Shown: positions 1 to 62,934 of the stretch, piece after piece
How positions within the stretch are numbered: the stretch's first letter is position 1
Layout of the letters: each line of letters opens with the position of its first letter
Assembly (NCBI RefSeq): GCF_963921235.1
Contig: NC_086097.1
Span: 46,750,001 to 46,814,000 of the forward strand
Direction: 5' to 3'
Origin: Mobula hypostoma
Lineage: Eukaryota
DNA length: 64,000 nt
Program-made: the position numbers and the translations under genes
The notes under the pieces: generated by a model
What the model saw: the letters and a program-made list of their open reading frames with translations, nothing else
The model's database searches: none
What the model was told of the DNA's origin: nothing

Positions 1-1321
1 AGGTCTCAAAGCTCTCCGCTTCTTTTTGGATTCCAGACCTAATCAGTTCCCCCCTACCACCACTCTGCTCCGTCTAGCGGAATTAAATTAGTCCTTACTC
101 TTAATAATTTCCCCTTTGGCTCCTCCCACTTCGTCCAAACTAAAGGTGTAGCTATGGGCACCCGTATGGGTCCTAGCTATGCCTGCCGTTTTGTTGGGTT
201 TGTGGAACAATCTATGTTCCGTGCCTATTCTGGTATCTGTCCCCCACTTTTCCTTCGCTGTATCGACGACTGCATTGGTGCTGCTTCCTGCACACATGCT
301 GAGCTCGTTGACTTTATTAACTTTGCTTCCAACTTTCACCCTGCCCTCAAGTTTACCTGGTCCATTTCCGACACCTCCCTCCCCTTGCTAGATCTTTCTG
401 TCTCCATCTCTGGAGACAGCTTATCCACTGATGTCTACTATAAGCCTACTGACTCTCACAGCTATCTGGACTATTCCTCTTCTCACCCTGTCTCTTGCAA
501 AAATGCCATCCTCTTCTCGCAATTCCTCCGTCTCCGCCGCATCTGCTCTCAGGATGAGGCTTTTCATTCCAGGACGAGGGAGATGTCCTTTTTTAAGGAA
601 AGGGGCTTCCCTTCCTCCACCATCAACTCTGCTCTCAAATGCATCTCCTCCATTTCACGCACATCTGCTCTCACTCCATCATCCCGCCACCCCATTAGGA
701 ATAGGGTTCCCCTGGTCCTCAACTACCACCCCACCAGCCACCGGGTCCAACATATTATTCTCCGTAACTTCCGCCACCTCCAACGGCATCCCACCACTAA
801 GCACATCTTTCCCTCCCCCCATCTCTGCTTTCCACAAGGATCGCTCCCTACGCGACTCGCTTGTCCATTCGTCCCCCCCATCCCTCCCCACTGATCTCCC
901 TCCTGGCACTTATCCTTGTAGGTGGAACAAGTGCTACACTTGCCCTTACACTTCCTCCCTTACCACCATTCAGGTCCCCAGACAGTCCTTCCAGGTGAGG
1001 CGACACTTCACCTATGAGTCGGCTAGGGTGATATACTGTGTCCGGTGCTCCCGATGTGGCCTTCTATATATTGGCGAGACCCGACGCAGACAGGGAGACC
1101 GCTTTGCTAAACACCTACGCTCTGTCCACCAGAGAAAGCAGGATCTCCCAGTGGCCACACATTTTAATTCCACATCCCATTCCCATTCTGACATGTCTAT
1201 CCACGGCCTCCTCTACTGTAAAGATGAAGTCACACTCAGGTTGGAGGAACAACACCTTATATTCCATCTGGGTAGCCTCCAACCTGATGGCATGAACATT
1301 GACTTCTCTAACTTCCGCTAA
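1..1321 (+). mobile_element. Penelope-like retroelement, 3' part of ORF (RT C-terminus plus GIY-YIG endonuclease), frameshifted
   Basis: RT motifs GTRMGPSYA, LRCIDD (YIDD-like), LDL, YYKPTDSHSYL in ORF 154-894; C-x2-C/CYTC linker and VIYCVRCSRCGLLYIGET GIY-YIG in ORF 431-1321. Confidence 0.92.
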
Positions 1322-1752
1322 TGCCCCACCTCCCCCTCGTACCCCATCTGTTATTTATTTTTATACACACATTCTTTCTCTCACTCTCCTTTTTCTCTCT
1401 CTGTCCCTCTGACTATACCCCTTGCCCATCCTCTGCGTCCCCCCCCCCACCTCCTTGTCTTTCTTCCCGGACCTCCTGTCCCATGATCCTCTCATATCCC
1501 TTTTGCCTATCACCTGTCCAGCTCTTGGCTCCATCCCTCCCCCTCCTGTCTTCTCCTATCATTTTGGATCTCCCCCTCCCCCTCCCACTTTCAAATCTCT
1601 TACTAACTCTTCCTTCAGTTAGTCCTGACAAAGGGTCTCGGCCTGAAACGTCGACTGCACCTCTTCCTAGAGATGCTGCCTGGCCTGCTGCGTTCACCAG
1701 CAACTTTGATGTGTGTTGCTTGAATTTCTAGCATCTGCAGAATTCCTGTTGT
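1322..1752 (+). repeat. PLE 3' terminal repeat (pseudo-LTR) with hammerhead motif
   Basis: Follows the stop codon; pyrimidine-rich; near-identical copies at 30210-30640 (-), 30893-31289 (+), related at 54985-55380. Confidence 0.85.
1621..1656 (+). ncRNA. Minimal type I hammerhead ribozyme motif, core mutated (CUGACAA)
   Basis: AGTC-CTGACAA-AGGGTCTCGGCCT-GAAA-C-GTC-GACT; helix I AGTC/GACT. Confidence 0.7.
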
Positions 1753-3574: not shown

Positions 3575-3776
3575 AGACAACACACACAAAATGCTAGAGG
3601 AACTCAGCAGGCCAGGCAGCATCTATTGAAAGGAATAACAGTGAGTCCTGCTGATGGGTCTTGGCCATAAACATCAACTGTTTATTCCTTTCCACGGATG
3701 CTGTCTGGCCTGCTGAGCTCCTCCAGCATTTTGTGTGTGTTGCCTTGGATTTCCAGCATCTGCAGATTTTCTCGTG
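3575..3776. mobile_element. Fold-back element made of PLE terminal sequence, with TSD
   Basis: Inverted arms ~3578-3642 and ~3677-3742 around a degenerate hammerhead; TSD TATTGATATAG at 3564-3574 and 3777-3787. Confidence 0.85.
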
Positions 3777-4017
3777 TATTGATATAGTGGCATAGTCTTA
3801 ACTCACACTGGCACTTTGGGATTCGAAGTTCATGTACTGAACTGTGTAGCTACTTATGGTAACCATGAAATTAATGGGTTGTTAAAGAAACCAACGTACA
3901 TCCCTAATGACCTTATTGAAGGAAATCTGCCATTTGAACCTAATATGGCCTATGTATGATTCCAGATTCACCTATGTGTTTGTTTCTTAATTGGCTTCTT
4001 AGTTAAGGAGAACATGG

Positions 4018-7747: not shown

Positions 7748-7941
7748 ATCCAATCAGAAACAAGAGAAGATCTGCAGTTGCTGGAAATCCAAGCAACACA
7801 CACAAAATGCTGGAGGAACTCGGCAGGCCAAGCAGCTTGTATGGAAAAGAGTACAGTCGACGCTTTGGCCAGAAACATTAACTGCTTACTCTTTTCCACA
7901 GATGCTGCCTGGCCTGCTGAGTTCCTCCAGCAAGTTGTATG
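7748..7941. mobile_element. Fold-back element made of PLE terminal sequence, with TSD
   Basis: Inverted arms meeting at CAGTCGACGCTTTGGCCAGAAACATTAACTG; TSD AGTCACTGGTAAAA at 7734-7747 and 7942-7955. Confidence 0.85.
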
Positions 7942-8139
7942 AGTCACTGGTAAAATTTACTTCTAAAATACAGTTGGTCATCATGTTCATTCAGAAGTGT
8001 ATAAGTTACTGCATTCATTATGATTATTAGTCAGAACAGTGGCTGAGCAACAGAGAACCATAAAAACTTGTCTTCATGTGTTAGCATAAGTAATTTATTT
8101 TAATTACTAAATCTATTAACTGTGTCTTTTATTTCCCAG

Positions 8140-8258: not shown

Positions 8259-8690
8259 GTAAATTGCATTCAAGTGCTCTAGTTTAAGAGTTTTTCATAT
8301 TGAGGTTATGGAGCTAGAAATTACATTGCACCTGAAGAGGTACGGTAAGCCAGTGCTGAGTTTGAGAGTGGGGGAGGACTATGCCAACTGAGTGCACCAG
8401 TCTTTAGCAGTGACACTCTCATATGCCTGAGGCCCGGCGCACAATGACGTTGCTCGCCCTTGTAGACCATGACAAGGAAATCACAGCAAGCCAAACAGTG
8501 GTGAGGAAATGGAATGAGAGGCCTGGACAAGAAGAAGGGGAAGGTGGAGGGGCAGGTCCACAGAGGGATAGCAGAATATGGAGGGTCACATAGGGGTTTG
8601 GGCTGAGTTAGTGGTTTTTACTTGAAGAGGAAAGATGGTGCAAGCAGAGCATCAGAGCGCTGAAGAATGGGCTGGCTGAAAAGGTTAATA

Positions 8691-8812
8691 GAGGGTCTCA
8701 GCCCAAAATTTCAACTGTACTCTTTCCCATAGATGCTGCCTAGCCTGCTGAATTCCTGCAGCATTTTGTGTGTTGCTTGGATTTCCAGCATCTGCAGATT
8801 TTCTCTTGTTTG
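8691..8812 (+). repeat. PLE terminal-repeat fragment
   Basis: gggtctcagcccaaaatttcaactg...gatgctgcctagcctgctg...ccagcatctgcag. Confidence 0.7.
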
Positions 8813-15720: not shown

Positions 15721-15815
15721 TCCCCCTCCCCTTTCCCTCTTCACTCTGAATCCCCTCTTGCCTCTTCTCCTCACCTGCCTCTCACCTCCCCTTCTCCCAT
15801 GGTCCACTCTCCTTT

Positions 15816-16479: not shown

Positions 16480-16780
16480 CTTATTAGATTCCTTCTTCTC
16501 CAGCCCTTTACCTGTCCCACCTATCACTTCTCTATTTCTTACTTCCTCTTCCACGCGCCTGGCTTCACCTATTACCTTCTAGCTTGTCCTTCTGCCCCTC
16601 TTCCCCCACCACCCCACACCTCCTTATTTCACCCTTCCTTTCCAGTTCTGATGAAGGGTCCCAGCTCGAAACCCCAACTGATTATTCCTTTCCATAGATG
16701 CTGCCTGACCTGCCGAGTTTCCCCAGCATTTTGTATGTGTTGCTTTGGATTTCCAGCTCCTGCTGAATCTCTTGTATTTA
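16480..16780 (+). repeat. Remainder of PLE terminal repeat with hammerhead motif (16643-16680)
   Basis: CAGTT-CTGATGA-AGGGTCCCAGCTC-GAAA-C-CCC-AACTG; cleavage triplet mutated. Confidence 0.75.
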
Positions 16781-24667: not shown

Positions 24668-25160
24668 TATAGAACATAAAACATTACAGCACAGAAACAG
24701 GCCCTTTGGCCCACAATGTTGTGCCCATCCAGTTAAATTAACAAACAAATGCGCAACCTAACTAATGCCCTCCATACCCTCCTACTTTCTTCACATTCAT
24801 GTGCTTATCTAAATGTCTCTAATGTATCTGCCTCTACCATCACTTCAGGCACCCACCACTCTCCGTGTAAAGACAAAACTTACCCCTGATATTTCCTCTG
24901 AAATTACCCTCTCTCACCTTAAATGCATTCCGTCTGGTATTAGTCATTCAAACACTGGGGAAAAGATACTGTCTGTCCACTCTGTCTATGCTTGTCATAA
25001 TCTTATAAACCTCTATCAGGTCTCTCATCAGCCCCCACCACTCCAGAAAAAGGAAACCAGGTTTATCCAACCTCTCATTATAGCACATGCCCTCAAATCC
25101 AGGTAGCATCCTGGGAAACCTCTTCTGCACCCTCTCCAAAGCCTCAATATGTTTCCTACA
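24668..25160 (-). mobile_element. CR1 LINE 3' end
   Basis: EALERVQKRFPRMLPG...DLIEVYKIM; atagaacata tail. Confidence 0.75.
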
Positions 25161-25164
25161 GTGG

Positions 25165-25436
25165 ATGGTCGATGTTTCAGATTGAGACTTTTCATTGAGA
25201 CTGGAAAAAGAGATGAGATAGCCAGTATAAAAAGTTGAGGGGAAGGGGGAAGCAAGAGTTGGGAAGTGATAGGTAGATCCAGGTGAGGGGGTGACTGATG
25301 GGCAGGTGGGGGGTGGAGAGAGAGATTGGGAATAATGCAAGAAGCTGGGAAGTGGAAGTGAGAAAGGGCTGAGGAAGATGAAATCTGATAGAAGAGAGTG
25401 GACCAAGGAATAAAAGTAAGGAGATGGGAGGGGAAC
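25165..25436 (-). repeat. PLE terminal repeat (target of the provirus insertion)
   Basis: Purine-rich reverse copy with degenerate hammerhead at ~25168-25203. Confidence 0.65.
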
Positions 25437-29745: not shown

Positions 29746-30308
29746 GGGCAGACATTATTGCAGGGGAACAAGAGGCAATTGAAATTGCAAGTGTGCAGGA
29801 AGAAACAACAGAAGTTGGTTTATTAAAATTATAAGAGGTGGAGACAGAAGAGAAGGAAAAATGGAGGAGAAAAGGGGCAAAGGAAGGACCAGACGGGGAG
29901 GCAAGAGTCGCGATGGCCCCATCCTGTATTAGACAGATACTATTGAAGTTATATCATGGGGCGATGCACCAGGGAAGGCAAAGCATGATCACAACCCTCT
30001 GGCAGGACTGGTGGTGGCCAGGGATGGGCAGGGATGTTGAGAAGTTCTGCCGCCGTTGTATCATTTGTGCCCAGCATAACCCTGGTAAGGGCAGAAAGCT
30101 ACAGCTTGCAAATCAGCCACGGCCGAGGGGACCCTGGGAAAACATCCAGATAGACTTCACAGGGCCCCTGCCAAAAAGCAGGGGGAAAAGCTACTGCCCA
30201 GTAATTATGCAAACAACAGGAATTCTGCAGATGCTGGAAATTCAAGCAACACACATAAAAGTTGCTGGTGAACGCAGCAGGCCAGGCAGCATCTCTAGGA
30301 AGAGGTGC

Positions 30309-30344
30309 AGTCGACGTTTCAGGCCGAGGCCCTTCATCAGGACT
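30309..30344 (-). ncRNA. Minimal type I hammerhead ribozyme motif, intact core
   Basis: Minus strand AGTC-CTGATGA-AGGGCCTCGGCCT-GAAA-C-GTC-GACT. Confidence 0.8.
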
Positions 30345-31193
30345 AACTGAAGGAAGAGTGAGTAAGGGATTTGCAAGTTGGAAGGGGAGGGGGAGATCCA
30401 AAATGATAGGAGACGACAGGAGGAGGAGGGATGGAGCCAAGAGCTGGACAGGTGATTGGCAAAAGGGATACGAGAGGATCATGGGACAGGAGGTCCGGGA
30501 AGAAAAACGGGGGGGGGACCCAGAGGATGGGCAAGGGGTATATTCAGAGGGACAAAGGGAGAAAAGGGAGAGTGAGAGAAAGAATGTGTGTATAAAAATA
30601 AGTAACAGATGGGGTACGAGGGGGAGGTGGGGCATTAGCGGAAGTTAGAGAAGTCGATGTTCACGCCATCAGGTTGGAGGCTACCCAGACGGAATATAAG
30701 GTGTTGTTCCTCCGACCTGACCAAGACTTCTCTAACTTCCGCTAACATTGACTTCTCTAACTTCCGCCAACATCGACTTCTCTAACTTCGCCAAGATGAA
30801 GCCACACTCAGGTTGGAGGAACAACACCTTATATTCCCTCTGGGTAGCCTCCAACCTGATGGCATGAACATCGACTTCTCTAACTTCCGCTAATGCCCCA
30901 CCTCCCCCTCGTACCCCATCTGTTACTTATTTTTATACACACATTCTTTCTCTCACTCTCCTTTTTCTCCCTCTGTCCCTCTGACTATACCCCTTGCCCA
31001 TCCTCTGGGCTTTTCCCCCCCTCCCCCTTTTCCTTCTCCCTGGGCCTCCTGTCCCATGATCCTCTCATATCCCTTTTGCCAATCACCTGTCCAGCTCTTG
31101 GCTCTATCCCTCCCCCTCCTGTCTTCTCCTATCATTTTGGATCTCCCCCTCCCCCTCCCACTTTCAAATCTCTTACTAGCTCTTCCTTCAGTT

Positions 31194-31229
31194 AGTCCTG
31201 ACGAAGGGTCTCGGTCTGAAACGTCGACT
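31194..31229 (+). ncRNA. Minimal type I hammerhead ribozyme motif, intact core
   Basis: AGTC-CTGACGA-AGGGTCTCGGTCT-GAAA-C-GTC-GACT. Confidence 0.78.
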
Positions 31230-32904
31230 GCACCTCTTCCTAGAGATGCTGCCTGGCCTGCTGCGTTCACCAACAACTTTTATGTGTATTGCCCAGTAAT
31301 TATGGATCACTTCACCCGGTGGGTGGAGGCTTTCCCAACAAGGGACTGCACCACCCGCACCGCTGCATGGCTCCTAGTTCAGGAAATCCTCTCAAGGTGG
31401 GGAACCCCAGTTCAGGTGGATTCAGATCAGGGAGCACATTTCACAGGGAAAGTGATGAAGGAAATGTGCCGACTGCCAGAGATTCGACAGCGGTTCCACA
31501 TACCCTACCACCCCCAGAGTTCAGGGATGGTAGAAAGGATGAACCGAACAATCAAGAATGCATTAACCAAAGCTATAGCTGAGACAGGAAAGACATGGAA
31601 TGATGTATTACCAGGAATCCTAATGAGATTGCGCGCAACCCCAAACTACACGCTGGGTCTCAGCCCCTACGAACTGTTGATGGAGCGAGCAATGCAACTC
31701 CCCTGTGGGGTAATTACGGGTTGCTGGGAGCCTGGGGCTTACAGGGATAGAATGACACAATATGTGAAAGACCTTAAAGTGTTGAAGGACCAAGCAAAAT
31801 AACAGCAGCGAATCGCTGATCAGAAAGAGCCAGAGGGAAAGGGGATAGTCCTTCCACAGTCCGGTGACCAAGTTATGGGGAGGGTGCTGCCAGAAAGGCC
31901 AGGGTTTGCCCGCAGGTGGATAGGACCATAGATGGTACTCTTAACCAATGATACGTATATCTATGTACAGACTCGGCGAGGCAGCCAGTGGAAACACTGG
32001 ACTCAGGTTAAAGCATACAACTCACCTTCTTGTTGCTCCTACAGACAGAATGGGGAACCAAGTGTACCCAGTAACCGTGTAATTACAGAGAACCTAAGAG
32101 AGGAACACCAGCTGACCATGGCAGACCTGACCACAGCTGATGAAAACATACTCGGAGAAAACGCCAAGGCAGAAAACGCTGAGAGCGTGGCAGAAGACAC
32201 TGAGAGCATGTTGGAAATCCATGAACATTCTGCTAAGGTGTGATGATGATGGTACTCGGTAAGGAAGGCTGGTTGCTAAAGGTAGATAATTAGTTTAATA
32301 GCATAGAATAGAAAAATATTGGAAAATAGATGGGGAGGGATTTTTAAGTTAAAGCAGAGGCAGCAAGTTCCACAATTTCAATGGCATTTCAGACTGCACT
32401 CGGCATCTGAAAGCAATCACACCCAGTCTGAGGAGCTGGGCCCTTTTCAGCAGTTGGGCCAGTGATTGACCGGACAGTTAGGAAGGGGGTGCCACCGGGG
32501 AGAGGTCCCTACAGGCATTTACGTAGAGGCCACCCCAACCCCTTCCGGTACATCGATGAGAGGGCCTGTGGGTGCTCCTGCAAAGAGAGTTTCAGCAACC
32601 AGAGAACAAAGAGCTGAAGACAAAGGAAAGTGATGAAGCTGCAATCAGACTGCAGGGAAAGATCCGACAGGCACACGAAAGAAGCCGCATTTCTAAAGAC
32701 TTGTTCAAATTTCTGGAACAGCCTCTCTGCTTAATATTTGGTAGGTAGCAATTAGGGATGGATACGGTAGATATCGAGGCACACAAAAATTGGGGGGATA
32801 ATTCTGAGGCAGGGCGTTTTTGCTGCCCTATTTGAGTAGATCCTCCTAGTTTGGCCTTTCCTGGTACAAATTTATTTTTGTCCAGGAGGGCCAAGAGGAA
32901 GGAC

Positions 32905-37310: not shown

Positions 37311-38579
37311 CATCAGTGTCTCTCACTCCGGACTTGGGCCATATCCACACCGTGGTGACACTGTTTTGGAGATACAACTGTTCACAGTTTTCAAAAATAA
37401 CTCAGAAGGGTTAGAAAACAGATCTACCAATGACACAAAAGTATTGTCATAAAAGAACCAGAGGGAAACACAAAAATAACAAAGCTATGAGGCAAGATTG
37501 TTTAACTCATATACTGCCATACCTGCCCCTATTAACCATCTCTTCATGCCAGTAGATGGGGCAGACAGATCTACTGCCTTGCCATTGAGAGCCGAATCAG
37601 TCCAATGGGGAATCTCTCCATTAAATGATGCAGGATCCACTGTGAATTTTTGCAATTTTGGACTCTAAGTGATAGAGGGTCTCAAAGAGTAGGTATGGGT
37701 TTCCACCCCGTGGAATATCAGTGCTGCGTAACTCAGGAGACTGGTTCCAAAAACTACACTTAAGAAAATATATTTTAAGCACTAAGGTTTTAAAACAAGA
37801 TAGAATTTTACAGATTTTTGGGGGTTTCGTACACAGACCCTGTTGTGTATTCAATATTGGGTCTTTAGTATTTTTTGGAACACAGACCATTTCAAGACTT
37901 AGTTCTCAAGAATATATTAAATCATGGTTAACATTAATGACAGTTAAAAAGCCTCCTAAATCCAAAGAAAGGAGGATGGCAAGTCAGGAATCAATGTTAT
38001 TCATATTGCAGTTTAATTTTAGAATCAGTAAGGTTTCTGGAACTCATCCAACCCAGTTAAAATAACAAGAGATCACCATAGAGGACAGAGACTATTACAG
38101 GAATTACTTTGATTCCAGGAAACCACTGTTAGTGTTTTGTGGAATATTTTGCATATGTTATTCTGAAGTCCTTAATCTTTTATGGTCTTTTTGGAGATGG
38201 TGTGGAAGGTCAGATTAGTTGTGTTCTTCATCATGAAACAAGTGGTCATTCTTAAATCATATATCTGCTTATACACACAAGACACTGGTCAATTGCATTC
38301 CCTGCACAGGGGGTAATGAATAGTTGATGTTTTGCGCTGAGATTCTTCATTGGGTCTGCAAAGGAAGAGAGCAGAAGCTCGAATAAAAGTTTAGGGGAAT
38401 GGAGAATAGATAACTGAGATTGTGCAAGGTTATATTCTGTATTTACTAGTCTATGTGTCTGACAACCAGAATATCATCAAAACAGGGTTTTATAATATGT
38501 AGATTAACAGGAGGATGTTGATTCAGGATGGGACTTACAATAATGTTATGGAGGATCCAGTGTGCAGGATTAAAAGAGA

Positions 38580-40974: not shown

Positions 40975-41485
40975 TGCCTTGGTCATGTCCAACCTGATGG
41001 CATTAATATCAACATTTCGAATTCATGGTAAATAACCACTCCCCATTCTTCCCCTCCCCCCTTTATTTTTGCTTATCCCTCCGGTCTTGTTAACCCTTCT
41101 CTTTTTCCTTCCTCACCCTCCCTCCCTCCCCGCCCATCACCTTCACCTACCTCCGGTTCCACGCCTTTATTCCATGACCCTCTGTCCTCTCCTATCAGAT
41201 TCCTCCTTCTTCAGCTTTTGCCTTTTCCATCACCTCCCAACTTCTTACATCATCCCCACTTACCCCCCTTACACCCCTCACCTGGATTTCTCCATCACTC
41301 ATCAGCTTGCGCTCCTCCCCCTTCCTCCCAACCCTTTTATTCTGGCTTCTACTCTTTTCCTTTCCAGTCCTGATGCAGGGTCTCAGCCCTAAATGTGAAC
41401 TGTTGATTTCCCTCTGTAGATGCTGCCTGGCCTGATGAGTTCCTCCAGCATTTTGTGTGTGTTGCTCCAGATTTCCAGCATCTAA
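40975..41485 (+). repeat. PLE 3' end with degenerate hammerhead (41365-41402)
   Basis: ccaacctgatggcattaatatc, pyrimidine tract, cagtcctgatgcagggtctcagccctaaatg. Confidence 0.75.
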
Positions 41486-46444: not shown

Positions 46445-47790
46445 CTAGTCAAGTCAAGTCAAGTCAAGTTTATTCTCATTTCGACGATAAGCTGCTGGTA
46501 CAGTACACAGTAAAAACAGGTTCCTCCAGGACCCTGTTGCTACATGAAACAACACAAAACTACACTAAACTATGTGGGACAGCACAAGGCTACACTAGAC
46601 AATGTAAAACAACATTAAAACTGCACTGGACTACAGACCTGCACAGGACTACATAAAGTGCACAAAACAGTGCAGGGTAGCACAATAATTAATAAACAAG
46701 ACAATAGACACAGTAGAGGACAAATTACAATATAATAATAAATGATGTAGATGTCAGTCTAGACTCTGAGTATTGAGGAGTATGATGACTTGGGGGAAGA
46801 CACTGTTGCACAGTCTGGTCGTGAGAGCCCGAATGCTTCGGTACCTTTTGCCAGACGGCAGGAGGGAGGAGAGTTTGTATGAGGGGTGCATGGGGTCCTT
46901 CACAATGCTGTTGGCTTTACGGGTGCAGCGTGTGGTGTAAATGTCTGTAATAGTGGGAAGAGAGACCCCGATGATCTTCTCAGCTGACCACTGCAGGGTC
47001 TTGCGATCCAAGATGGTGCAATTCCCAAACCAGGCAGTGATGCAGCTGCTCAGGATGCTCTCGATACATCCTCTGTAGAATGCGGTGAGGATGGGAGGTG
47101 GGAGATGGACTTTTCTCAGCCTTCGCAGAAAGTAGAGATGCTGCTGGGCTTTCTTGGCCATGGAGTTGGTGTTGAGGGACCAGGTGAACACCAAGAAATC
47201 TGGTGCTCTTAATGATCTCAACGGTGGAGCCATCAATGTTTAGCAGAGCGTGCTCACTTCGTGCTCTCCTGAAGCCAACAACCATCTCTTTTGTTTTGTT
47301 CACATTCAGAGACAAGTTGTTGGCTCTGCACCAGTCCATTAGCTGCTGCACCTCCTCTCTGTATGCTGACTCATCGTTCTTGCTGATGAGACCCACCACG
47401 GTCGTGTCATCGGCAAACTTGATGATGTGATTCGAGCTTTGTATTGCTGGCACAGTCGTGGGTCAGCAGAGTGAACAGCAGTGGACTGAGCACACAGCCA
47501 TGGGGGGCCCCCGTGCTCAGTGTGATGGTGTTGGAGATGCTGCTTCCAATCTGGACTGACTGAGGTCTCCCAGTCAGGAAGTCTAGGATCCGGTTGCAGA
47601 GGGCCCTGCAGTTTCAGCTTTCCAATCAGGTGCTGAGGAATGATTGTGTTGAATGCTGAACTGAAGTCTATGAACAGCATTCGAACGTACGTGTCTTTTT
47701 CGTCCAGGTGGAGGGTGGTGGTGATGGCACCGTCTGTTGAGCGGTTGGGACAATACACGAACTGCAGGGGGTCCAGAGGCTTGCGTATGC
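46445..47790 (-). mobile_element. Rex1/Babar LINE RT plus 3' UTR
   Basis: [48 protein letters not shown]; (CTTGA)n tail. Confidence 0.88.
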
Positions 47791-47809
47791 ATATGTTCAA
47801 GAGCCAAGT

Positions 47810-49500
47810 TCCAAGATATTGTCGATGCATTCAGAGAATTTAAGATACCGGGCCTTACAGCAAACAATCACTAAACAAAAAAAATCCACTAGCCTGCTCT
47901 CTTGTCCAATAGCTTCCTCTGGAAAAACAATCAGTGCAAGACCTTGGAAAGCATACAGCACTCTGCTCATACCTTGGGAGCCACCAGAGGCAGGCATTGA
48001 TGATGAAATTCAGCAGTGCATTATATAGACCAGTGCAGCCACTTCAATCCCTGGTCCTGATCCCCCTTTACACTTCTACTCCCCATCAGAAAAGCCTTAA
48101 AGCTCCATGTTTCTTTCTGGATAACAGACTGAACCAATTCCCCTCCATCAGTACCCTCCTCCATCTGGCAGAACTGGATTTCCCCTTCAACAATTTCTCC
48201 TTGGGCTCCCCTCACTTTCTCCAATCCCAAGGTGTAGCCACAGGCACCGCATGGGCCCAGCTATGCCTCCCTTTACATTAGCTGCGTGGAACAGTCAATG
48301 TTCCAAGCCTACGCCGATAAACACTCCACAACTTTCTGTACTATATCAACAACTGCATTGGTACAGCTTCCTGCATCCATACTGAGCTTGTCAGTTTCAT
48401 CAACTTGCCTCCAATTTCCAACCTCCCCTCAAATTTACTTGGTCCATCTCTGATACTTTTCTCACCTTTCTTGATCTCTCTGTCTCTATCTCTGGAGACA
48501 GACTGTCTATTGAAATCTTTTACAGACCTACGGAATCTCACTGTAATCTTAACTATATCTCTTCCCATTTTGTCACTTGTAAAAATGCCATTCCTTTTTC
48601 TCAGTTCCTCCGGCTCCACTGCATCTGTTCCCAGGATGAGACTTTCCACTCAAGAACATCTGAGATGTCCTCCTTTTCCAAAGTAAGGAGTTTCCCTTCC
48701 ACCACCAGAATGCTGCACTCATTCGCATCTCCTCCATTTCTCAAACATCTGTTCTCACTCTAACCTCTCACCATCATAACAGGGATGGGTTTCCCCTTGT
48801 CCCTCCCAACCATTCTATGAGCCTGCATATGCAGCACATCATTCACTGTAACCTCCTCCGTCTTTAACAGGATCCTACTACTGAGCACACCTTTTCCTCT
48901 GGGATTGCTCTCTACATGACCTCATCATTCATCCCTCCCCACTAATCCCCCTCCTGTCCCTGCAAGCAGATTAAGTGCCACATCTGCCTCTACACTTCCT
49001 CCCTCACCACCATTCAGGGTCCCACACTGTCCTTTCAGGATGGAAAACACTTCACCTGTAAGTTTGTCAAGGTCATCTATTTTATCTGGTGTTCTTGGTG
49101 CGGCCTCCTTTACATTGGTGACACCCAACGTAGATTAGTGGATAGCTTTGTTGAGCACCTTCACTCTGTCCACTGCAAAAGGCAGGATTTATTGGTGGCC
49201 ACCCATTTCAGCAGACTTCCCCTTACCACATGTTGGTCTTTGGCCTCCTCTACTGCCATGATGAGGCCACAGCCAGGTTGGAGTTGCAACACATTATATT
49301 CTATCTGGATAGCCACCAACCTAATGGCATGAACAACAGCTTCTATAATATTTCCCCTTCCCCCTTTCTCTCCTTCCCCTTTTTCCATTGCCCATTTTGG
49401 TTCCCTCTTATCACTTTTCTTCTCCTCACCTGCCTCTGGTGCCCCTTCTCCTTCCCTTTCTTCCATAGTCAACTATCTCCTGTCAAATGTCTTCTTTTCG
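47810..49500 (+). mobile_element. Degenerate Penelope-like element
   Basis: Homologous to 1-1321 (GVATG..MGPSYA, YINNCIG, LYIGDT, QPNGMN). Confidence 0.82.
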
Positions 49501-50733: not shown

Positions 50734-50827
50734 ATGGTGACATTGGAAACTAACTCTGAGGCCGAATCAGGACAGAATTCGGCACCAACTGGCTTCACAC
50801 AGATGAAGAAATTTAAGAATCACATAA
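50734..50827 (+). CDS. TNFAIP2: Putative first coding exon of TNFAIP2 (exon starts 50730)
   Basis: Acceptor tgtttAG, ATG, open MVTLETNSEAESGQNSAPTGFTQMKKFKNHI, donor GTAAGC; phase 1 joins in frame to 58450. Confidence 0.6.
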
Positions 50828-52014
50828 GTAAGCCTTCGGACTAATCACTGGCATTTAAAGTTCATTTTACAAACACACAATTGTCATTGTTTAAGACCCA
50901 GATAATCCAATTACAAACAAGAATTAAAAGAGATAAAATACACAGTGTATTTTATAGTGTAGTACTTTAGTCCATTTAGTCCATTTTATAGTTAATTGTA
51001 AATGGTGATTTTTCTTTATATTTTGTACTCTCTGTATTGCAAATGCAGCATCTGCTTTAATCTAAAAATATATTATAAAACAGAGTGCCCAAAAGAGAGT
51101 CTAATGTAAATTTTCCCAATTAAAAATTATTAAGATTTTTTCAAAACTATTTTTAACATACTAAATATTTGGATGAACTTGATCTAAATACCTTTGACCC
51201 ACCTGAATCACAAAGGGAAACTGAAAATTTGTTCACCAAGTTTCTGTGGGAGGAGCTGCAATTTAAAACAGTCTTACAAATATATCCAAGAGAAAGAACT
51301 CAGTTCAGTGCGATTGCGAAGATATTATTACAGAGATTTTTCCATAGTGACCAAGGAATCACATTTTTGCGGCTGCTTCAGGCGGAATGGGAATATCTTT
51401 CTTTCTTAATCTAAAGATGGCTAAGGTTTGAACCAAATCATGACTGCCCTGGACATGGTATCATCAAGCATTGCTTCAACATGTTTCACTCGAAAGAAAA
51501 TTGCACATTTGACTTTTAAACTCCCTTTAAATTTCCCAGCAGCTTGTACAATATAAATCTATTGACAGTGCAACAATTACTAATAAGGCTCCAACTCTTC
51601 CTTTTTAATTTTTAAACTCTCTGTCAATAAATGCCACAAGTAATATTGAACTAAAAGAAGAAATCCCAATAATGCTGCTCAGAAATTTGGATACAGAAAC
51701 ATTATGCAAAGACATAAGATTATTAGTTGAAAAGTTATGATCACATACACTTGAGGCTACAATGACTGGCAATGCTGTAGAGAAAATGTCCTTACCTCTC
51801 AAATACTTATTATCCATCTGATCTACTTTTTCAATTTAAACAACCTAAATTGGTATCCTGTTCAACCTAGTTGAGCATTAACAAGATTCAAGGACAATCA
51901 TTGAAATTTGTTGGCCTTAATTTCAAAACTCAGAACTTCTCCCATGGACAGCTAATGTTGGTTGCTCCAAAGCTGTAGATAAAAATAACCTCTATGTTAT
52001 GGAAAGCAGAAAGT

Positions 52015-52325
52015 TGGGGGAAGGGAAAGATGTGCTTGGTGGTGGGATCCCGCTGGAGGTGACGGAAGTTACGGAGAATTATACATTGGACACGGAGGCT
52101 GGTGGGGTGTTAGGTGAGGACAAGAGGAACCCTATCCCGAATGGGAGGATGGGGTGAGAGCAGATGTGCGTGAAATGGGAGAGATACATTTGAGGGCAGA
52201 GTTGATGGTGGAGGAAGGGAAGCCCTTTTCTTTAAAAAAGGAAGATATCTCCTTTGCCCTGGAATGAAAAGCCTCATTCTGAGAGCAGATGCAGCAGAGA
52301 CGGAGGAATTGAGAGAAGGGGATGG
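52015..52325 (-). mobile_element. PLE internal fragment
   Basis: Reverse complement of roughly 515-830. Confidence 0.8.
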
Positions 52326-53619
52326 TACAAATGTCTTACGGTCTTATGGTATGGAGGTTCAGTGCACAGAATTGAAAGAGGCTGCAGAGGGTTGTAGAAC
52401 TCAGCCATGGGCACAACCTTCCCCACCATCAAGGATATCTCGAAGCAGTGATGCCTCAAGAAGGCAGCGTCCATTATTAAGAACCCTCACCATCCAGGAC
52501 ATGCTCACTTCTTGTTACTACCATTAGGGAAGAGGTGCAATGATTTGGGAATGTTCCTCACTCTCAGATTTCTGAATGATCCATGAACACCGCCTTATTA
52601 CTCCCTTTTTCTGAAAATGTATTTATTTTTGTGACTTCTAGATTTTTATGTCGTTGCCACATTTCACTCGTATACGTTGGTGATAGTAAATCTGATTCTG
52701 ATTTCTTAAAATACAAGAAGATATGTCTGGAAATATTCAGCAGGTCAGACTACATCTGAGGGGAGAGAGACTAGCTTACTGTTTCAGGTCAAAGATTTTC
52801 TGTCAGATCCTGAACTGCTAACTCTGTTTCTCTTCCCACAGGTTTGGTCTGACCTGTTGGGTATTGCTAGTGTTTTCTGTTTTTACTTTAGTTACATAAA
52901 TATAGTATTCTGTTAAATAAGGTTCCACACTATTCTAATAAATTATACTAGCATTGAATTACAATATTGATTTGCAAAGGAAGACAGATCCCTTCGTACA
53001 TCCACATAGACACGTTTGTTTATTTTGATTCAGCTTATTAATTAAGGCACACAGAGAGGCCATCTAATCCACGGGGTCTTTGCTGATCCAAAACAAAACA
53101 ATCCCATCAACTCTCCTTTCCTTCCCATTTCTCTTTACCCCCACATTACTTCATGTATCCTCATCAAACCATATTTAGTCACTTAGTAGGGGAATATTCT
53201 CCAATTAACCTGCCAGCACATTGGAGGCACAAGGGTCTGCAGATGTAGGAAGCTGGAGCAAGAGACGATCTGCTGGAATAACTCAGGGGTCAAGCAGCAT
53301 CCGTGGGAGGAAAGGAATTGTCATGATGTGGGATTTTGACCTGAAACATCAACAGCTGTTTTCCTCCCATAGATGCCGCTTGACCTGCTGAGGGATTGCT
53401 TGTTGTACCCCCAGCACATCTTTGGGAGGGTATCAGATCATCTGGCAGAAACTCACCTGGTGACAGTAAGCACATACAAATCCCACACAGACAGTGGCCA
53501 TTGTCTAGATCAAACCTTGGATCTGTGATGCTGCAGCAGGAAATGTTGTGTTTCTCTGCCACCTGATTATCTTTGCGAGGAAGGCATCAATCAGAAAGCA
53601 GGTTATGGCATTGCATAGG

Positions 53620-54540
53620 AATAGTACTAGGCCATTCAGCCCATCCAGTCTGTTCCATCATTTGATCACAGCTGATTTATTTTCCCTCTCAACCTCATTC
53701 TCCTGCCCTTTCTAATCAATAACCTATAAATATACCCAACGACTGGGCCTCCACAGCTATCTGGGGCAATGAATTCACAGATTCACCATCTTCTGGCTAA
53801 AGAAATTCCTTTCCACTTCTGTTCCAAAGGAACATCCTTCTCTTTTACTATTAGAAGCATCCACTGCACATTCACTCTATCTAGACCTTTCAATATTGGT
53901 AGGTTTCATTGGGAATCCCCCCTCATTCTTCTAAACTCCATTGAGTATCAGCCCAGAGCCATCAAACATGCTTCACCCATTAGCTCTTTCATTTCTGGGA
54001 TGATTTTCGTAAACCTCTTCTGGACCCTCTCCAATGCCAGTACAGCCTTTCTTAGATATGGGGCCCAAAGCTACTCACAATGTAGTCTGATAAATGCCTT
54101 ATAAAGCCTCAGTATTATATCCTTGCATTTATATTCCAGTCCTCTTGAAACGAGGACCTTTCCTACTATTGACTCAAGTTGAAAGTTAACCTTGAGGGAA
54201 TCCTGCAAAAGGACTCCCAAGCCCCTTTACACCTCTAATTTCTGAATTCAATCCCCATTTAGAAAATAGTCTACCCTTTATTCCTTTGACCAAGGTGCAT
54301 GACCATATACTTCCCTACACTATATTCCATCTGTTTCTTTGTACATTCTCTCAATTTGTCCAAGTTCTCCTGCAGACTTCCTGCTTCCTCAACACTGCAT
54401 GCCCCTCCACCAAACTTTGTATCATCTTCAGACTTAACCAGAAAGCCATCAATTCCGTCATCCAGATTATTATCATGTAACAAAAAAGAGCACTGACTCC
54501 TGTGGAACTCCACTAGTCACTAGAAACCAATCAGAAAACA
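53620..54540 (-). mobile_element. CR1 LINE fragment
   Basis: KSEDDTKFGG (KFADDTK), LQENLD, VMHLG. Confidence 0.75.
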
Positions 54541-54561
54541 CTTTTTAAAAAATTCTGTTAG

Positions 54562-55378
54562 CCATCTCTTCCCACCGATCTCCCTCCTGGCACTTATCCT
54601 TGTAAGCGGAACAAGTGCTACACATGCCCTTACACTTCCTCCCTCACCACCATTCAGGGCCCCAGACAGTCCTTCCAGGTGAGGCAACACTTCACCTGCG
54701 AGTCTGCTGGTGTGATATACTGTGACCAGTGCTCCCGGTGTGGCCTTTTATATATTGGTGAGACCCGACACTGATTGGGAGACCGTTTCATTGAACACCT
54801 AGCTTTGTCCGCCAGAGGAAGCAGGCAATACATTTTAATTCCATGTCCCATTCCGATATGTCAATCCATGGGCTCCTCTACTGTCGAGATGAAGCCACAC
54901 TCAGGTTGGAGGAACAACACCTTATATTCCGTCTGGGTAGCCTCCAACCTGATGGCATGAACATTGATTTCTCTAACTTCCATTAATGCTCCTCCTCCCC
55001 TTCTTACCACATCGCTCCTATTTATTTCTTCTTCTCTCTTTCCTTCTCACAATAACTCCTTGCCTGTTCTCCACCTTCCTCTGATGCTCCCCTCCCCCTT
55101 TCTTTCTTCCAAGGCCTTCCGTCCCATGATCCTCTCCCTTCTCCAGCTCTGTATCACTTTTGCTAATCAACTTTCCAGCTCTTAGCTTCATCCCTCCCCT
55201 CCTGTCTTCTCTTATCATTTCAGGTTTCCCCCTCCCCCTCCCACTTCCAATCTCTAACTATCTCTTTTCTCAGTCAGTCCTGACGAAGGGTCTTGACCCG
55301 AAACGTTGACTGTACTTCTTCCTGTGGATGCTGCCTGGCCTGCTGCGTTCCACCAGCATTTTGTGTGTGTTGCTTTGA
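54562..55378 (+). mobile_element. PLE 3' end (GIY-YIG plus terminal repeat)
   Basis: CKRNKCYTCP, VIYC..CSRCGLLYIGET; terminal repeat follows. Confidence 0.88.
55275..55312 (+). ncRNA. Minimal type I hammerhead ribozyme motif, best-preserved copy
   Basis: CAGTC-CTGACGA-A-GGGTC TT GACCC-GAAA-C-GTT-GACTG; 5-bp helix I, Watson-Crick helix II. Confidence 0.82.
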
Positions 55379-58140
55379 TCCTGGATTTCCTTATTTGCAG
55401 ACCCCAATTAGTTTGGATTGGCAACAACATCTCCTCTACGGTCTCCATCAGCAGAGGTGCACCATAGGTGTGTGTGCTTAGATCCCTGCTCTATTCGCTT
55501 TACACCTATGATTGTTTGGCTAAGCACAGCACCAATGCCATATTCAGGTTTGCTGATGATACCACTATTGTGGGCTGAATCAGGGTGGTGATGAATCAGC
55601 ATATAGGAGGGTGTCATAATGGGGGAGTGCTGGGAGCGGACCCAAATGCAAGACACAGACACAGAAGTACTAGGAACAGGACTTGACTAGAGAGCTGGGA
55701 CAAGAACACAGACTTGGGCTAGGACATTGGTTAGGCAAGCGGGACCAGGACTAGGAACTGGGAACTAGGAGCCCGGGCTTGGACTCCGAGCCGGATACTG
55801 GACAAGGACCCAGAACCTGGGTCTTGACTCGGGCTCGGGCCCCAAAACTAGGCGAGGACATGACGGGGCTACAGGACTGGGCATGGCTTGGGTTCCTCGA
55901 GGCGAGGACATGACGAGGCTTGGGTTCCTCGAGGCAAGGACATGAACACAGAGCCTTGGTCTTGAGCACAGGAACATGGAGCCTTGGACTTGAGAGACAG
56001 GAACATGGAACACAGAGCTGGGACCCCTCCTTGGGAACAGAACGTAGGGCCCGGACTCATACACAGAATGCTGAACATGATGAGACGGTTCCCAACACTA
56101 GGTATCGGCAAATGGCCGGACTTACCTAGCGAAGGCGTGGACACAGAGACAGTTCCCAACACTAGGTAGCGGCAAATGGCCCGGCCTACCTAGCAAAGGT
56201 GTGGACACAGAGACAGTTCCAACTCAACGATAGACAGTTCCTTATCTTGACACAGCAAGGCTCCGGTCTCACTCCGGTGGTTGAACTTGATAAGGTTGCA
56301 GCCTAGGCTCCAGACACAGGTTGCAGGCAAGGCTTCAGAAGGAAGGGGAAGGGAAGGGAACAGTCCAGGCTCAGGGTAACAGCAAAAACGGCCTAGCTTA
56401 CCCAAAGGAGACAAGGACAGGAAGGGACAGATCCAACTGCAGGTAACAGCAAAGGCAGCCTGACTTATAGCACAGAGGCAAGGACGGGATACTGACAAGC
56501 TGCTACCTAGTGTTGGGAACTGTCTCTGTGTCCACGCCTTCACTAGGTAAGTCCGGCCATTTGCCATTACCTAGTGTTGGGAACTGTCTCGTCGTGTTCA
56601 GCATTCTGTGTATGAGTTCTGGCCCTACATCCTGTTCCCAAGGAGGGGTCCCGGCTCTGTGTTCCATGTTCCTGTCTCTCAAGTCCAAGGCTCCGTGTTC
56701 CCATGCTCGAGACCAAGGGTCTGTCTTCATGTCCTCTCCTCAAGGAACCCAAGCCTCCTGATGTCCTCGCCTCAAGGAACCCAAGCCTCGTCATGTCCTC
56801 GCCTCAAGGAACCCAAGCCATGAAGAACCCTAGCCTTGAGGAACTCAAGCCATGTCCAGTCCTGTAGCCACATCATGTCCTTGCCTGGTTCTGGGTCCTT
56901 GTCCAGTCTCTGGCTCGGAGTCCAAGCCCAGGCTCCTAGTTCCCAGTTCCTAGTCCTGGTCCTGCTTGCCTAGCCGATGTCCTAGCCCAAGTCTGTGTTC
57001 TTGTCCCAGCTCCTAGTCTGCATCCAGTCACGTCCCTAACCCTAGTCAAGTCCTGTTCCTAATACTTCAGTATCTGTGTCTTGCATTTGGGTCCGCTCCC
57101 AGCACTCCCTCATTATGACAGAACAGTCCAGTCCAAGATCAGAATCATGTGCCTCAATTAAGGCACACAACAGGACAAGGGAAAACCAGAAAACCGGAGA
57201 ACCTGGAATAAGGAACGATGGACCGGACCGTGAACCGGAATCCGGCCTTCACGGACCGGACCATGACAGCGGGAGATTAAAAATTTGGCTGAGTGGTGCC
57301 GTAATAACAACCTCTCATTCAATGTCAGCAAGGCCAAGGAACTGATTACAGACTTCAGGCGAGGGAATCCAGAGGACCATGGGCCAGTCCTCATTGGAGG
57401 ATCAGAGGTAGAGAAAGTGAGCAACTTTAAATTCCTGGCTGTTACTATTTCAGAGGATTTGTCCAGGACCCACTATTGTGTTAGCACAACACCACCTCTG
57501 CTTCCTCAGGAGTCTTAAGAGATTCACAGAGAAACTTTGACAAACTTCTATAGATGTGCAGTGGAGAGTGTATTGATTGGCTGCATCACATTCTGGTATG
57601 GAAATACCAATGCCTTTGAATGGAAAATTCTACAAAAGGAGGTGGATTTGGCCCAGTCCATCATGGGTAAAAGCCTCCCAATCACTGAGCACATCTACAT
57701 GTAACACTGTCGTAGGAAAGCAGCATCCATCATCAGAGATCCCCACCACCCAGGTCATGCTCTCTTATCACTGTTGCCATTAGGTAGAAGGTACAGGTGC
57801 CTCAGAACTCGCACCACCAGGTTCAAGAACAGTTACTACCACTTAACCATCAGGTGCTTGAATAAAAGGGAATGCCTGCAGTCAGTTTCCCATCATTGAA
57901 AAGTCCCCACAACCAATGACCTCACTTTAAGGCCATATTCTCATGTTCTCGTTATTTGTTGCTATTTATTTATATTTTCATTTGCACAGTTTGTTGTCTT
58001 CTGTACTCTGGTTGATCTTTCATTGATCCTGTTATAGATACCATGCTATAGATTTGCTGAGTATGCCCACAGGAAAATGAATCTCAGGGTCATATATAGT
58101 GATATTTATGTACTTTGATAATAAATTTTACTTTGAACTT
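55379..58140 (+). mobile_element. Rex1/Babar LINE interrupted by LTR composite 55612-57268
   Basis: RFADDTTIVG before the insert; WCRNNNLSFNVSKAKELITDFR after; actttgaactt tail. Confidence 0.8.
55612..57268. mobile_element. LTR composite: solo LTR containing an inverted partial copy of the same family (~56503-57120)
   Basis: TGTCA...TGACA ends, imperfect TSD GAGGG/GCGGG, second TGACA at 57116-57120. Confidence 0.82.
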
Positions 58141-58449
58141 AGAACATTAAAATTGAGTAAAATCATATATTGTGCATAGGGAAAATTAAAGATAATTATA
58201 TTAGATGTAATTTTTGCATGCATATTTGTTTTTAGTGTGTATGTTTTTATCGGTTAGTTTACCTACATAATTTTAATCCTTTAATTATATTATTAATGGA
58301 ATAAATTTAAGTTAGACTTTGCTTCATTTACAAAAAGTGCTGTAACATCTGTATGCATGGAAATAAATGCAAACAAAATTGTTGCAATAAAAATACATTC
58401 AATGTCAATTATGTTAGCTGGCTTTTAAATACAGCTTATTCTTTTCCAG

Positions 58450-58650
58450 TGGGAAACAAGGTAGCCTGTATGCAGACGGCTGACAGTTCAGGAATAGGTT
58501 CTAAACCTAAAGTGAAGAAACACAATAGGCTAAGGGCCATTTTCTCACTATTTTCGCATAAGAAGGAAAAAACACTTAATTCAACAGAGGACATTGTGGA
58601 TATTGTAGATATCAATGGCAAAACTTGGGATTCTGCTGAAGTATTATCAG
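58450..58650 (+). CDS. TNFAIP2: TNFAIP2 exon with N-terminal polybasic segment
   Basis: Acceptor cttttccAG, donor GTAAGT, phase 1/1; KPKVKKHNRLRAIFSLFSHKKEK resembles the M-Sec Lys-rich N-terminus. Confidence 0.75.
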
Positions 58651-61180: not shown

Positions 61181-62185
61181 GGAAATTCAGTACCAATGCC
61201 CACCATTCCTGAAGCAGATTGACTTTAAAAAAGGGAATCTGCTCATGCGAAATTGGAACTGTGTTTCATCACCATTTTTGAGTGAGCCTTTTGAAACAGC
61301 ATCAGTGAGACTAATACCACCATTTTAGCTTTTGGAGGCTGATGACTTCAGGCTTCCCAGTATTTAATTTAGGAACATTAGATGCTATGCTGGAGGAAGG
61401 ATGGAGGAGTGGGGTGGGAAAGAAGTTGTTACAGGTGAAAGTCTCACTAAGATTGTACGGATAAGAACAAAATACAGTTCTGCAGTGGAGGAGGATGATG
61501 TAGAAACATTGGAGGGGTTGTTTTCATTAGCTATGTAATGAGCACTTAGGATGCTATTTATGGCAATGATCAGAGCCACTTTGGTATTGTGTTACAAATG
61601 GGCACAAACTTGGGAGTGTACAACATATACAAGGTCTTTTGACAGGAGGCTATAAACGGATTGGAGATATTCCACTTGTAACAGTATTACATTATACTTT
61701 CATTGACTTAGTAAGAAATAAAGATATATTTTCTAAACTGCCTGTAATTAAGAATATTATTTCTAATAATTGGTTCTGAGTGTGTTCTCAATTAAAGAAG
61801 AAACACTTCATGCTTTGCTAATTACCAATTATGATGAACGATTTGATGGCAAATGGTTTACTTTTAAATATGAAGACCAATATATATGCTAACAATATTT
61901 ACTGAAAGCAACAAAAAAATCTGCAAATGCTGGAAATCAGAACTAGAAACAGGTATTTATCCCAATGTGCAGGTCAGGCAACATCTGTGGCACATAGTTA
62001 ACATTTTACATTCTGTTGACACTTTTTCCTTTTTACCAGTGCTGCCTCACCTGCTGATTGATTCCGGCATTTTCTGTTGATTGAAAGCAAATCTCAAATT
62101 TTTTTGAAAACTTCGACCAATTGTAATTGACTAGAAGTTTTTGTGTATTTTAATGGAATTATAACAGTAATTTCCTTTTGCCTAG

Positions 62186-62831
62186 AAATGGACATCAAAG
62201 AACTTATTGAAAAAAGGCAGTATTTTAAGGCCGACTGCCACCTCATCAAATTGGAACATAAACAATATACTAATGATACAACAGAGGCTGATGAAGAACT
62301 CGTCAAAGAGCAAAAGAAAGGAATAGAATCACTGTATGAGCTGCTTAGTGCTGAAATTTTCACAGTGGCAAAAAACTCAATGAGCATTTCCAAGGAAAAC
62401 CCAGATCTGTTGAAGATGGCAGTAAGAGTGATCATGCAAGAAGAAAAAGCGGATCAAATATATCTAGAGGAAAAGGAGAAATCTGGAGCTATTGCAGAAG
62501 TTAGGCCAAGAAGATGGGAAACTAAATGGTTGAGTATTATAGAGCAATCTGTCAATGAAAGATTAGGTGAGCTACCCAGTATTCCTGATGCTGCAGAAAC
62601 CAAATGGCTTTTTGAGCATTTAGTGCAGCATCATAAAAAACTGAAAGAGGATTTTGACACCATTGTGAACTGCATCAAACCATGTTATCCTCAAGAGTAC
62701 AACATATGCGAAAAGTATGTGGAATATTATCATAAAAAAAGTTCATCCCTCATGGAATTAATCATAGAAAGTGAACCAAAAGGAAAAAATGTTTATCCTT
62801 TTTTGCACTGGATTTACTCCTGTTATCCAAA
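62186..62831 (+). CDS. TNFAIP2: TNFAIP2 (M-Sec, Sec6 family) large coding exon
   Basis: Acceptor ccttttgcctAG, donor GTAAGT; ESLYELL, RPRRW, LKEDF..IKPCYPQEY...YH, WIYSCYP match recalled TNFAIP2 motifs; in frame with 58650. Confidence 0.88.
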
Positions 62832-62934
62832 GTAAGTTGGATACATATCCAACATATGTTTAATTTATTTACTGTATTATTGTCAAGTATTATATTCTAA
62901 GATCAAGATTTTCTTACCTGCTTACCTTATTGTA

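Follow-up and report, generated by a model that had tools for sequence, protein, structure and literature searches.

Introduction

Minimal type I hammerhead ribozymes that lack loop 3 have been described in the terminal repeats of Penelope-like elements (PLEs) by Cervera and De la Pena (2014, PMC4209133). As characterised there, members of the class (min-HHRs) carry a bulged base after A9, a G10.1-C11.1 pair and a palindromic 15.2-16.2, are thought to act as dimers and are weakly active in vitro. The hosts named in that paper are flatworms, bony fishes, coelacanth, Xenopus and reptiles, and the motifs it reports include solitary ones from truncated elements as well as opposite-strand pairs 100-700 bp apart. 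For cleavage as dimers, a review (PMC6765202) cites Lunse et al. 2016, and a preliminary description of the DNA studied here, which had stated that PLE minimal hammerheads cleave as dimers, agrees with both sources.

A second close system is the Poseidon PLE of Anolis carolinensis (PAc), for which Frangieh et al. (2024, PMC11167929) report hammerhead cleavage that depends on C3 and G8. In the same report, two adjacent internal reverse-transcription starts in the anole element account for an optional PLE tail of 30-40 bp. Furthermore, the preprint of Li et al. (2026) records PLEs and related retrozymes in the one chondrichthyan that it sampled. Here, we analyzed a 64,000-nt stretch of the genome of the batoid ray Mobula hypostoma (contig NC_086097.1, positions 46,750,001 to 46,814,000, forward strand), referred to as the window, with a focus on a motif of this kind at positions 55275-55312.

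Results

Anatomy of the hammerhead motif

Three sites of the window carry a motif in which boxes and helices can be read throughout.

55275..55312, + strand: intact minimal type I hammerhead motif (manual reading, strict descriptor, covariance model 79.5 bits)
30308..30345, - strand: intact motif with G10.1 paired to U11.1 (descriptor, covariance model)
31193..31230, + strand: descriptor-passing motif, helix II made of three G-U wobbles and one G-C (descriptor, energy)

Read in order, the motif at 55275-55312 (+) consists of CAGTC, CTGACGA, A, GGGTCTTGACCC, GAAA, CG, U, U and GACTG. Its helix I comprises 5 bp (CAGUC/GACUG), and among the strict matches this helix is always 5 bp long, with CAGTC/GACTG or TAGTC/GACTG, and open, which corresponds to the type I topology. 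Both boxes, CUGANGA (C3-A9) and GAAA (G12-A14), are exact, as they are in the copies at 31193 and 30308. Between A9 and position 10.1 lies a single unpaired A (55287), and the equivalent column holds an A in at least 90% of 79 aligned copies. Helix II is formed by 4 bp (GGGU/ACCC) with a 4-nt CUUG loop and contains the G10.1-C11.1 pair (G55288-C55299); of 78 distinct copies, 54 have G-C and 19 have G-U at this place, and the copies at 30308 and 31193 have G-U. The position of helix III is taken by the palindrome ACGU (A15.1-C15.2-G16.2-U16.1, 55303-55306) without a loop, just as the preliminary description had it. The H at position 17 is U in the 55275 motif (55307) and C in the two other copies. 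By hammerhead numbering, the cut is predicted between 55307 and 55308, i.e., 3' of U17, in agreement with the motif borders and the expected cleavage site proposed previously.

Detection of intact and decayed copies

The strict descriptor combined exact boxes, a helix II of at least 4 bp, a palindromic helix III, H17 and a helix I of at least 4 bp. It returned three matches in the window, 55275-55312 (+), 31193-31230 (+) and 30308-30345 (-), which are the three sites that had been listed as intact cores. When the window was simulated 200 times with a second-order Markov model, it returned none. With a looser pattern, 5 matches were observed versus 1.14 expected, a number reached in 0 of 100 shuffles.

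A covariance model trained on 79 genomic copies and run on the window without filters gave 11 matches at E <= 0.027, of which 6 (at 55265, 30298, 1610, 31183, 41355 and 16633) are themselves training rows. All six copies previously reported as damaged are among the 11; three belong to the training rows, and the other three matched from outside of it (38311-38368 (-), E 3e-8; 3633-3690 (+), E 1e-7; 25160-25213 (-), E 9e-5). The covariance-model scan, which had been suggested as a check, thus recovered all nine sites known from the preliminary description and added two decayed copies that were absent from it (8684-8727 (+), E 0.002; 53318-53365 (+), E 0.027). The decayed motifs are as follows.

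1620..1657, + strand: decayed motif, G8>A only (sequence reading, covariance model)
3643..3680, + strand: decayed motif with A6>C, G12>T, ACGT>ACAT and G1.1>A (sequence reading, covariance model)
8684..8727, + strand: decayed, 5'-truncated motif (covariance model)
16643..16680, + strand: decayed motif, ACGT>ACCC, helix III palindrome lost (sequence reading, covariance model)
25160..25213, - strand: strongly decayed motif with several core changes, usual downstream tail missing (covariance model)
38311..38368, - strand: strongly decayed motif with several core changes (covariance model)
41365..41402, + strand: decayed older-family motif with A9>C, G12>T, ACGT>ATGT and G at position 17 (covariance model)
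53318..53365, + strand: decayed motif at the apex of a hairpin stub (covariance model)

Core bases or the palindrome are lost in 8 of the 11 window copies, with CpG-type transitions in ACGT and TCGAC accounting for many of these changes.

The hammerhead families of Rfam comprise types I, II and III, HH9 and HH10. Their models gave no match at the gathering score or at E <= 10, neither over the whole window nor in the 131-nt segment 55230-55360, which is expected because the motif has no helix III stem-loop.

The motifs belong to a Penelope-like element

The identity of the element that carries the motifs was derived from the following copies.

1..1752, + strand: PLE of which the window edge leaves the 3' half (RT frame 43-894; EN (GIY-YIG) frame 392-1321; stop 1319-1321; decayed motif 1620-1657)
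54562..55375, + strand: 814-bp 5'-truncated PLE copy with the 55275 motif, 3' UTR only, without ORF
30213..31292: two 5'-truncated PLE copies in head-to-head inversion (30213-30720, - strand; 30793-31292, + strand)

The ORF at 43-894 (P0001) contains RT motifs and is 46% identical (E 1e-64) to residues 145-367 of a sea-urchin protein (P0020), for which weak RVT_1 and GIY-YIG Pfam matches were obtained. For the ORF at 392-1321 (P0002), the last 160 residues are similar to the C-terminus of P0020 (E 6e-36). P0002 further contains CX4CX2C followed by VIYCVRC...LLYIGET, and its own Pfam match to GIY-YIG, at E 0.015, is below the Pfam threshold. The architecture of a PLE consists of an RT and, C-terminal to it, a GIY-YIG nuclease, and the similarity of both frames to the sea-urchin protein bears out the earlier assignment of the motifs to PLEs. 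A cysteine linker CX4CX2C before GIY-YIG is known from Neptune and Nematis-type PLEs (Craig et al. 2021, PMC8557442), and by its sequence the linker motif points to a Neptune-type element. Moreover, the canonical features of EN+ PLEs are present, i.e., a pseudo-LTR, 5' truncation, an inverted 5'-truncated neighbor and an optional tail; adjacent inverted copies are a known PLE arrangement (PMC8557442).

Within the element, the hammerhead lies about 300 nt 3' of the stop codon and 68 nt before the 3' end. The 3' end at 55375 is common, within 2 nt, to 28 of 29 other genomic copies in a sample selected by the element tail (L072-L100, among the matches listed). In the copy at 1-1752, the element end at 1721 is followed by a 31-nt tail extension to 1752, and this optional extension of about 31 nt is present at 1722-1752, 3747-3778 and 8782-8809 and absent at 55375. 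Elements end either 68 nt or about 99 nt past the predicted cut.

The tail motif GATGCTGCCTGGCCTGCTG (55327-55345) is located past the predicted cut and before the 3' end, the place at which reverse transcription would begin. It was matched 14 times in the window at up to 3 mismatches versus 0.05 times expected, and its conservation between PLE families equals that of the ribozyme core.

Outside the window, the genomic copy L109 has a 900-aa open frame and a 210-bp 5' repeat of its own 3' end. Both terminal repeats contain a hammerhead (1928-1965 and 5442-5479, same strand, 3,514 bp apart), each of them with one disabling change. The location of the motif in PLE terminal repeats, which had been claimed before, is thereby seen on a single element, and a read-through transcript of such an element would contain the two motifs that the dimer model requires.

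In L109, the long frame has its first AUG about 70-80 nt past the repeat. By analogy to the anole element, a conserved ATG in the tail (GATGCTGCC) was considered as the start of the PLE ORF and rejected, since the frame stops after 17 codons in the repeats of L109 and L110. It should also be noted that a +1 offset separates the RT frame from the EN frame at one C-rich spot in 10 of 12 RT-EN junctions, including those of copies with the 900-aa frame (sample: window frames 43-894 and 392-1321, and L102-L110). As an exception, a second and more divergent copy in L104 has RT and EN in one frame. The offset could be an inherited defect of the master copy or could reflect frameshifting or slippage.

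Copies in the window are dead insertions

The motif at 16643 lies at the 3' end of an older PLE copy with its body at 14657-15733, and the motif at 3643-3680 forms the apex of a hairpin stub with arms at 3578-3632 and 3639-3778. The motifs at 30308 (-) and 31193 (+) lie one in each arm of the inverted pair 30213-31292, and this 1.1-kb pair interrupts an LTR-retrotransposon integrase between its H2C2 and rve domains. The split integrase extends over 29835-31802, with matches to Integrase_H2C2 (E 5e-16) and rve (E 3e-12). Another retroelement, a LINE-type reverse transcriptase remnant at 46754-47830 (-) (RVT_1, E 7e-6; ALKBH8_N in Pfam, E 7e-21), adjoins a further PLE body at 48096-49348 (+), downstream of which no hammerhead match was found.

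The window copies are dead insertions. The intact motifs have no intact same-strand partner nearby and are therefore predicted to be inert in cis, including the copy in an intron of a TNFAIP2-like gene, whose beginning was placed as follows.

50734-50827, 58450-58650 and 62187-62850, + strand: first three coding exons of the TNFAIP2-like gene (ray orthologue mapping, GT-AG borders)

The frame 62131-62835 encodes a Sec6 domain and is 91-92% identical to stingray TNFAIP2-like proteins. Intron 1 (50828-58449) contains the 55275 motif and the decayed 53318 copy, both in sense orientation. Two motifs had been placed, in sense, within putative introns of this gene; for 55275 this holds, but the copy at 41365 precedes the first coding exon by 9.4 kb. 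Within the window, the intact motif of intron 1 lacks an intact partner on its own strand, and cleavage of the pre-mRNA in cis is therefore not to be expected.

Genome-wide copies decay like neutral DNA

The searched genome comprises 3.48 Gb. A first look with three 3'-end queries gave at least 3,036, at least 4,618 and at least 4,090 candidates, and a query with an RT piece gave at least 116,314, all of which are numbers of candidates rather than copy numbers. Among the matches listed, 81 copies were kept in register, 51 of a younger and 30 of an older family. This sample was obtained with queries that contain the motif and is therefore biased towards intact motifs. Within it, the strict descriptor was passed by 20 of the 51 younger-family copies and by none of the 30 older ones, and the ACGT palindrome is kept in 38/51 and 4/30 copies, respectively. 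Most older-family copies retain CUGAUGA, and their palindrome is mostly CpG-decayed. In the tail-only sample, which is unbiased in this respect, none of the 12 copies with an alignable upstream flank is intact. Taken together, these counts indicate that inserted copies decay like neutral DNA and that the three intact window copies are just less worn.

Variation at non-CpG positions was lower in the core than in the flank (0.024 versus 0.098 and 0.077 versus 0.181) in copies from motif-including queries, with the bias to intact motifs that these entail. In the tail-selected sample, the values were 0.051 for the core versus 0.106 for the flank, where the register of the flank is disturbed by indels.

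Pairing was assessed over nine helix I/II pairs in 78 distinct copies, in which 92.5% of the cells are complementary versus 13-43% after shifting the partner by 1-3 columns. Shuffled alignments of the 78 copies, however, gave a mean of 92.4% paired cells, and 260 of 500 shuffles were as high as the observed value. Changes on both sides of a pair were found for only 2 pairs, a number reached in 123 of 500 shuffles. The helices are therefore conserved in sequence, and covariation does not add support for them in this genome.

Short copies and hairpin stubs

In the tail-selected sample (n = 29), a script placed 13 of the 5' ends inside the 38-nt motif, 2 just upstream of it and 14 further up; by eye, two of those 14 (L073 and L090) also begin inside the motif. 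The 5' border of the motif (55276-55278) is the start of 6 of the 29 copies. An inverted arm within 200 nt is carried by 9 of the 29, with junctions that vary between copies. Hairpin stubs also occur in the window, at 3578-3778, 7760-7944 and about 53262-53395, and are predicted to fold at -110, -96 and -63 kcal/mol, respectively. Head-to-head stubs consist of an inverted PLE tail of about 65 nt and a direct copy and turn in or beside the hammerhead; their genomic representatives are L084-L086, L093, L096 and L097. Two hairpin stubs gave weak matches to microRNA precursors in Rfam, which at E 1-8 are far below the gathering score. The idea that short copies derive from a cleaved template, in which case they would begin at the predicted 5' end of the product, was rejected, with none of the 29 copies beginning at 55308.

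It is possible, though doubtful, that the short copies at 3643, 8684 and 53318 and the partial one at 7865 do not represent the ends of PLE insertions but constitute a non-autonomous mini-element or retrozyme-like family of about 100 nt (hammerhead plus tail) that would amplify separately and be mobilized in trans by PLE proteins. The start of 6 of the 29 copies within 3 nt of the 5' motif border and the presence of three hairpin stubs in the window fit such a family, as does the relation of animal retrozymes to PLE terminal repeats that Li et al. (2026) propose in their preprint, where retrozymes are found in its single chondrichthyan. However, no head-to-tail arrays were seen, as model matches on one strand of the window are separated by 2 kb or more. 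In their tail sequence the stubs are identical to the PLE, and the variable junctions of the inverted arms fit independent abortive or turn-around events better than a single master.

A further, tentative reading, which we regard as rather improbable, is that the hammerhead is the commonest end or turn-back point of PLE cDNA synthesis in this genome. It is suggested by the tail-selected copies, because about half of them begin in the motif, with a cluster at its 5' border, and a third are hairpins that turn in the motif. If true, it would be the folded or dimerized ribozyme rather than cleavage that shapes insertions and seeds abundant hairpin-forming stubs of about 100 nt inside genes.

A putative double hammerhead and the alternatives

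We consider it probable that 55275-55312 is a minimal type I hammerhead, situated 68 bases before the 3' end of a truncated PLE copy, in which cleavage after U55307 is likely only with a second copy paired through ACGU. The layout that we observed comprises the motif, its position in the element, a full-length element with two copies and two alternative 3' ends. On this layout, and following the literature, the 5' and 3' motifs in the transcript of an active element would form a double hammerhead, in which ACGU would pair with ACGU in a 4-bp helix III and helix I would form between the two copies. Each copy would then be cut after position 17, which would yield an RNA of unit length that carries a 5'-OH and a 2',3'-cyclic phosphate. 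To act as a template, this RNA would have to be ligated again, possibly to a circle, because the start of reverse transcription lies 3' of the cut, so that this site must return downstream of the ORF.

Nearest-neighbor estimates, which ignore tertiary contacts, gave -20.1 kcal/mol for a double hammerhead of the 55275 motif, -20.5 kcal/mol for that of 30308 and -1.7 kcal/mol for that of 31193. Two 55275 monomers in an alternative fold reach -30.6 kcal/mol versus the -20.1 kcal/mol of the double hammerhead. For the monomer 55271-55316, the minimum-energy fold has -15.3 kcal/mol versus -10.9 kcal/mol when only helices I and II are formed. In the competing fold, GACG of the CUGACGA box is paired with CGUU from the helix III region, and this fold may represent an inactive conformer. 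As model values, the energies are in line with the weak in vitro activity that has been published for the min-HHR class.

The double hammerhead is favored by the co-occurrence of all min-HHR class features (the bulge, G10.1-C11.1, the palindrome and the placement in PLE terminal repeats) and by the anole PLE hammerhead, which is reported to cleave in vitro and to lose this activity with C3 or G8 mutations (PMC11167929). Several observations weigh against it, i.e., the lack of covariation support in this genome, the equal conservation of the downstream tail with its 14 window matches, the absence of an Rfam hammerhead score and folding energies that favor alternative monomers. Moreover, none of the 29 tail-selected copies begins at 55308, and the short ones begin 6-32 nt upstream. 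From the literature, it is to be considered that published min-HHRs cleave poorly even as dimers (PMC4209133), that Naiad PLEs are described as thriving without the motif (PMC8557442) and that, according to the report on the anole element, catalytic mutants still insert in vitro and no RNA-seq reads end at the cut site (PMC11167929).

The same anole results, together with the missing covariation and the low in vitro activity of min-HHRs, would also suit an explanation that we judge unlikely, in which the motif is kept as a structural or protein-binding 3'-end element, for RT recognition, RNA dimerization or pausing near the start of reverse transcription, and cleavage is incidental or absent. 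The 63-nt tail that adjoins the motif is equally conserved, and 13 of the 29 tail-selected copies (about 15 by eye) begin inside the motif, as if reverse transcription stops or turns there. Against this explanation, all eleven invariant bases of the core are retained here in two families of different age, along with the NUH rule and the palindrome, and the same holds for PLEs from flatworms to reptiles as documented in PMC4209133, a constraint that exceeds the need of a plain hairpin. In addition, the anole motif does cleave, in a C3- and G8-dependent manner (PMC11167929). A chance origin of the motifs from repeat-rich DNA, for which nothing speaks except the shortness of the motif, is practically impossible and was already refuted by 3 observed matches versus none in 200 simulated windows and by the fixed place of the motif in a repeat family that has thousands of candidates in the genome.

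Comparison with known systems

With the double hammerhead as the preferred reading, the locus can be set beside the systems described so far. Like PAc, the ray element has its hammerhead shortly upstream of two alternative ends or reverse-transcription starts, but in PAc the motif overlaps the ORF start (PMC11167929), unlike here, where the first AUG of the long frame follows only after the repeat. The expected layout, i.e., the motif, 68 nt, a first reverse-transcription start, about 31 nt and a second start, is displayed by this element.

Animal non-LTR retrozymes (Cervera and De la Pena 2020, PMC7229834; Li et al. 2026) resemble the motif in their type I topology, minimal helix III, kinship to PLE terminal repeats and occurrence in non-mammalian vertebrates. 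In contrast to the head-to-tail tandem arrays that give circular RNAs in retrozymes (PMC7229834; Li et al. 2026), no array and no head-to-tail hammerhead units were found in the window, judged by the spacing of the model matches.

The closest correspondence is with the min-HHRs of PMC4209133. The boxes, the open 5-bp helix I, the bulge, G10.1-C11.1 and the loopless palindrome are shared, as are the placement in the terminal repeat of an element with RT and GIY-YIG, the spread over the whole genome, the predominance of solitary truncated copies and the opposite-strand pairs. Differences concern helix II, which has 4-5 bp here versus 7-8 bp in the Schistosoma min-HHR, and the extreme variability described there, compared to which two related families here share nearly the same motif. 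A batoid ray also differs from the hosts named in the main text of that paper. Judged by its sequence, the motif is a further instance of the already described min-HHR kind, with every feature of the class present. It thus adds a batoid ray to the hosts of PLE minimal hammerheads and leaves the knowledge of these ribozymes unchanged. For annotation, its value is that such motifs in the introns of cartilaginous fishes, which Rfam models miss, can be read as the tails of retroelements and not as host ribozymes.
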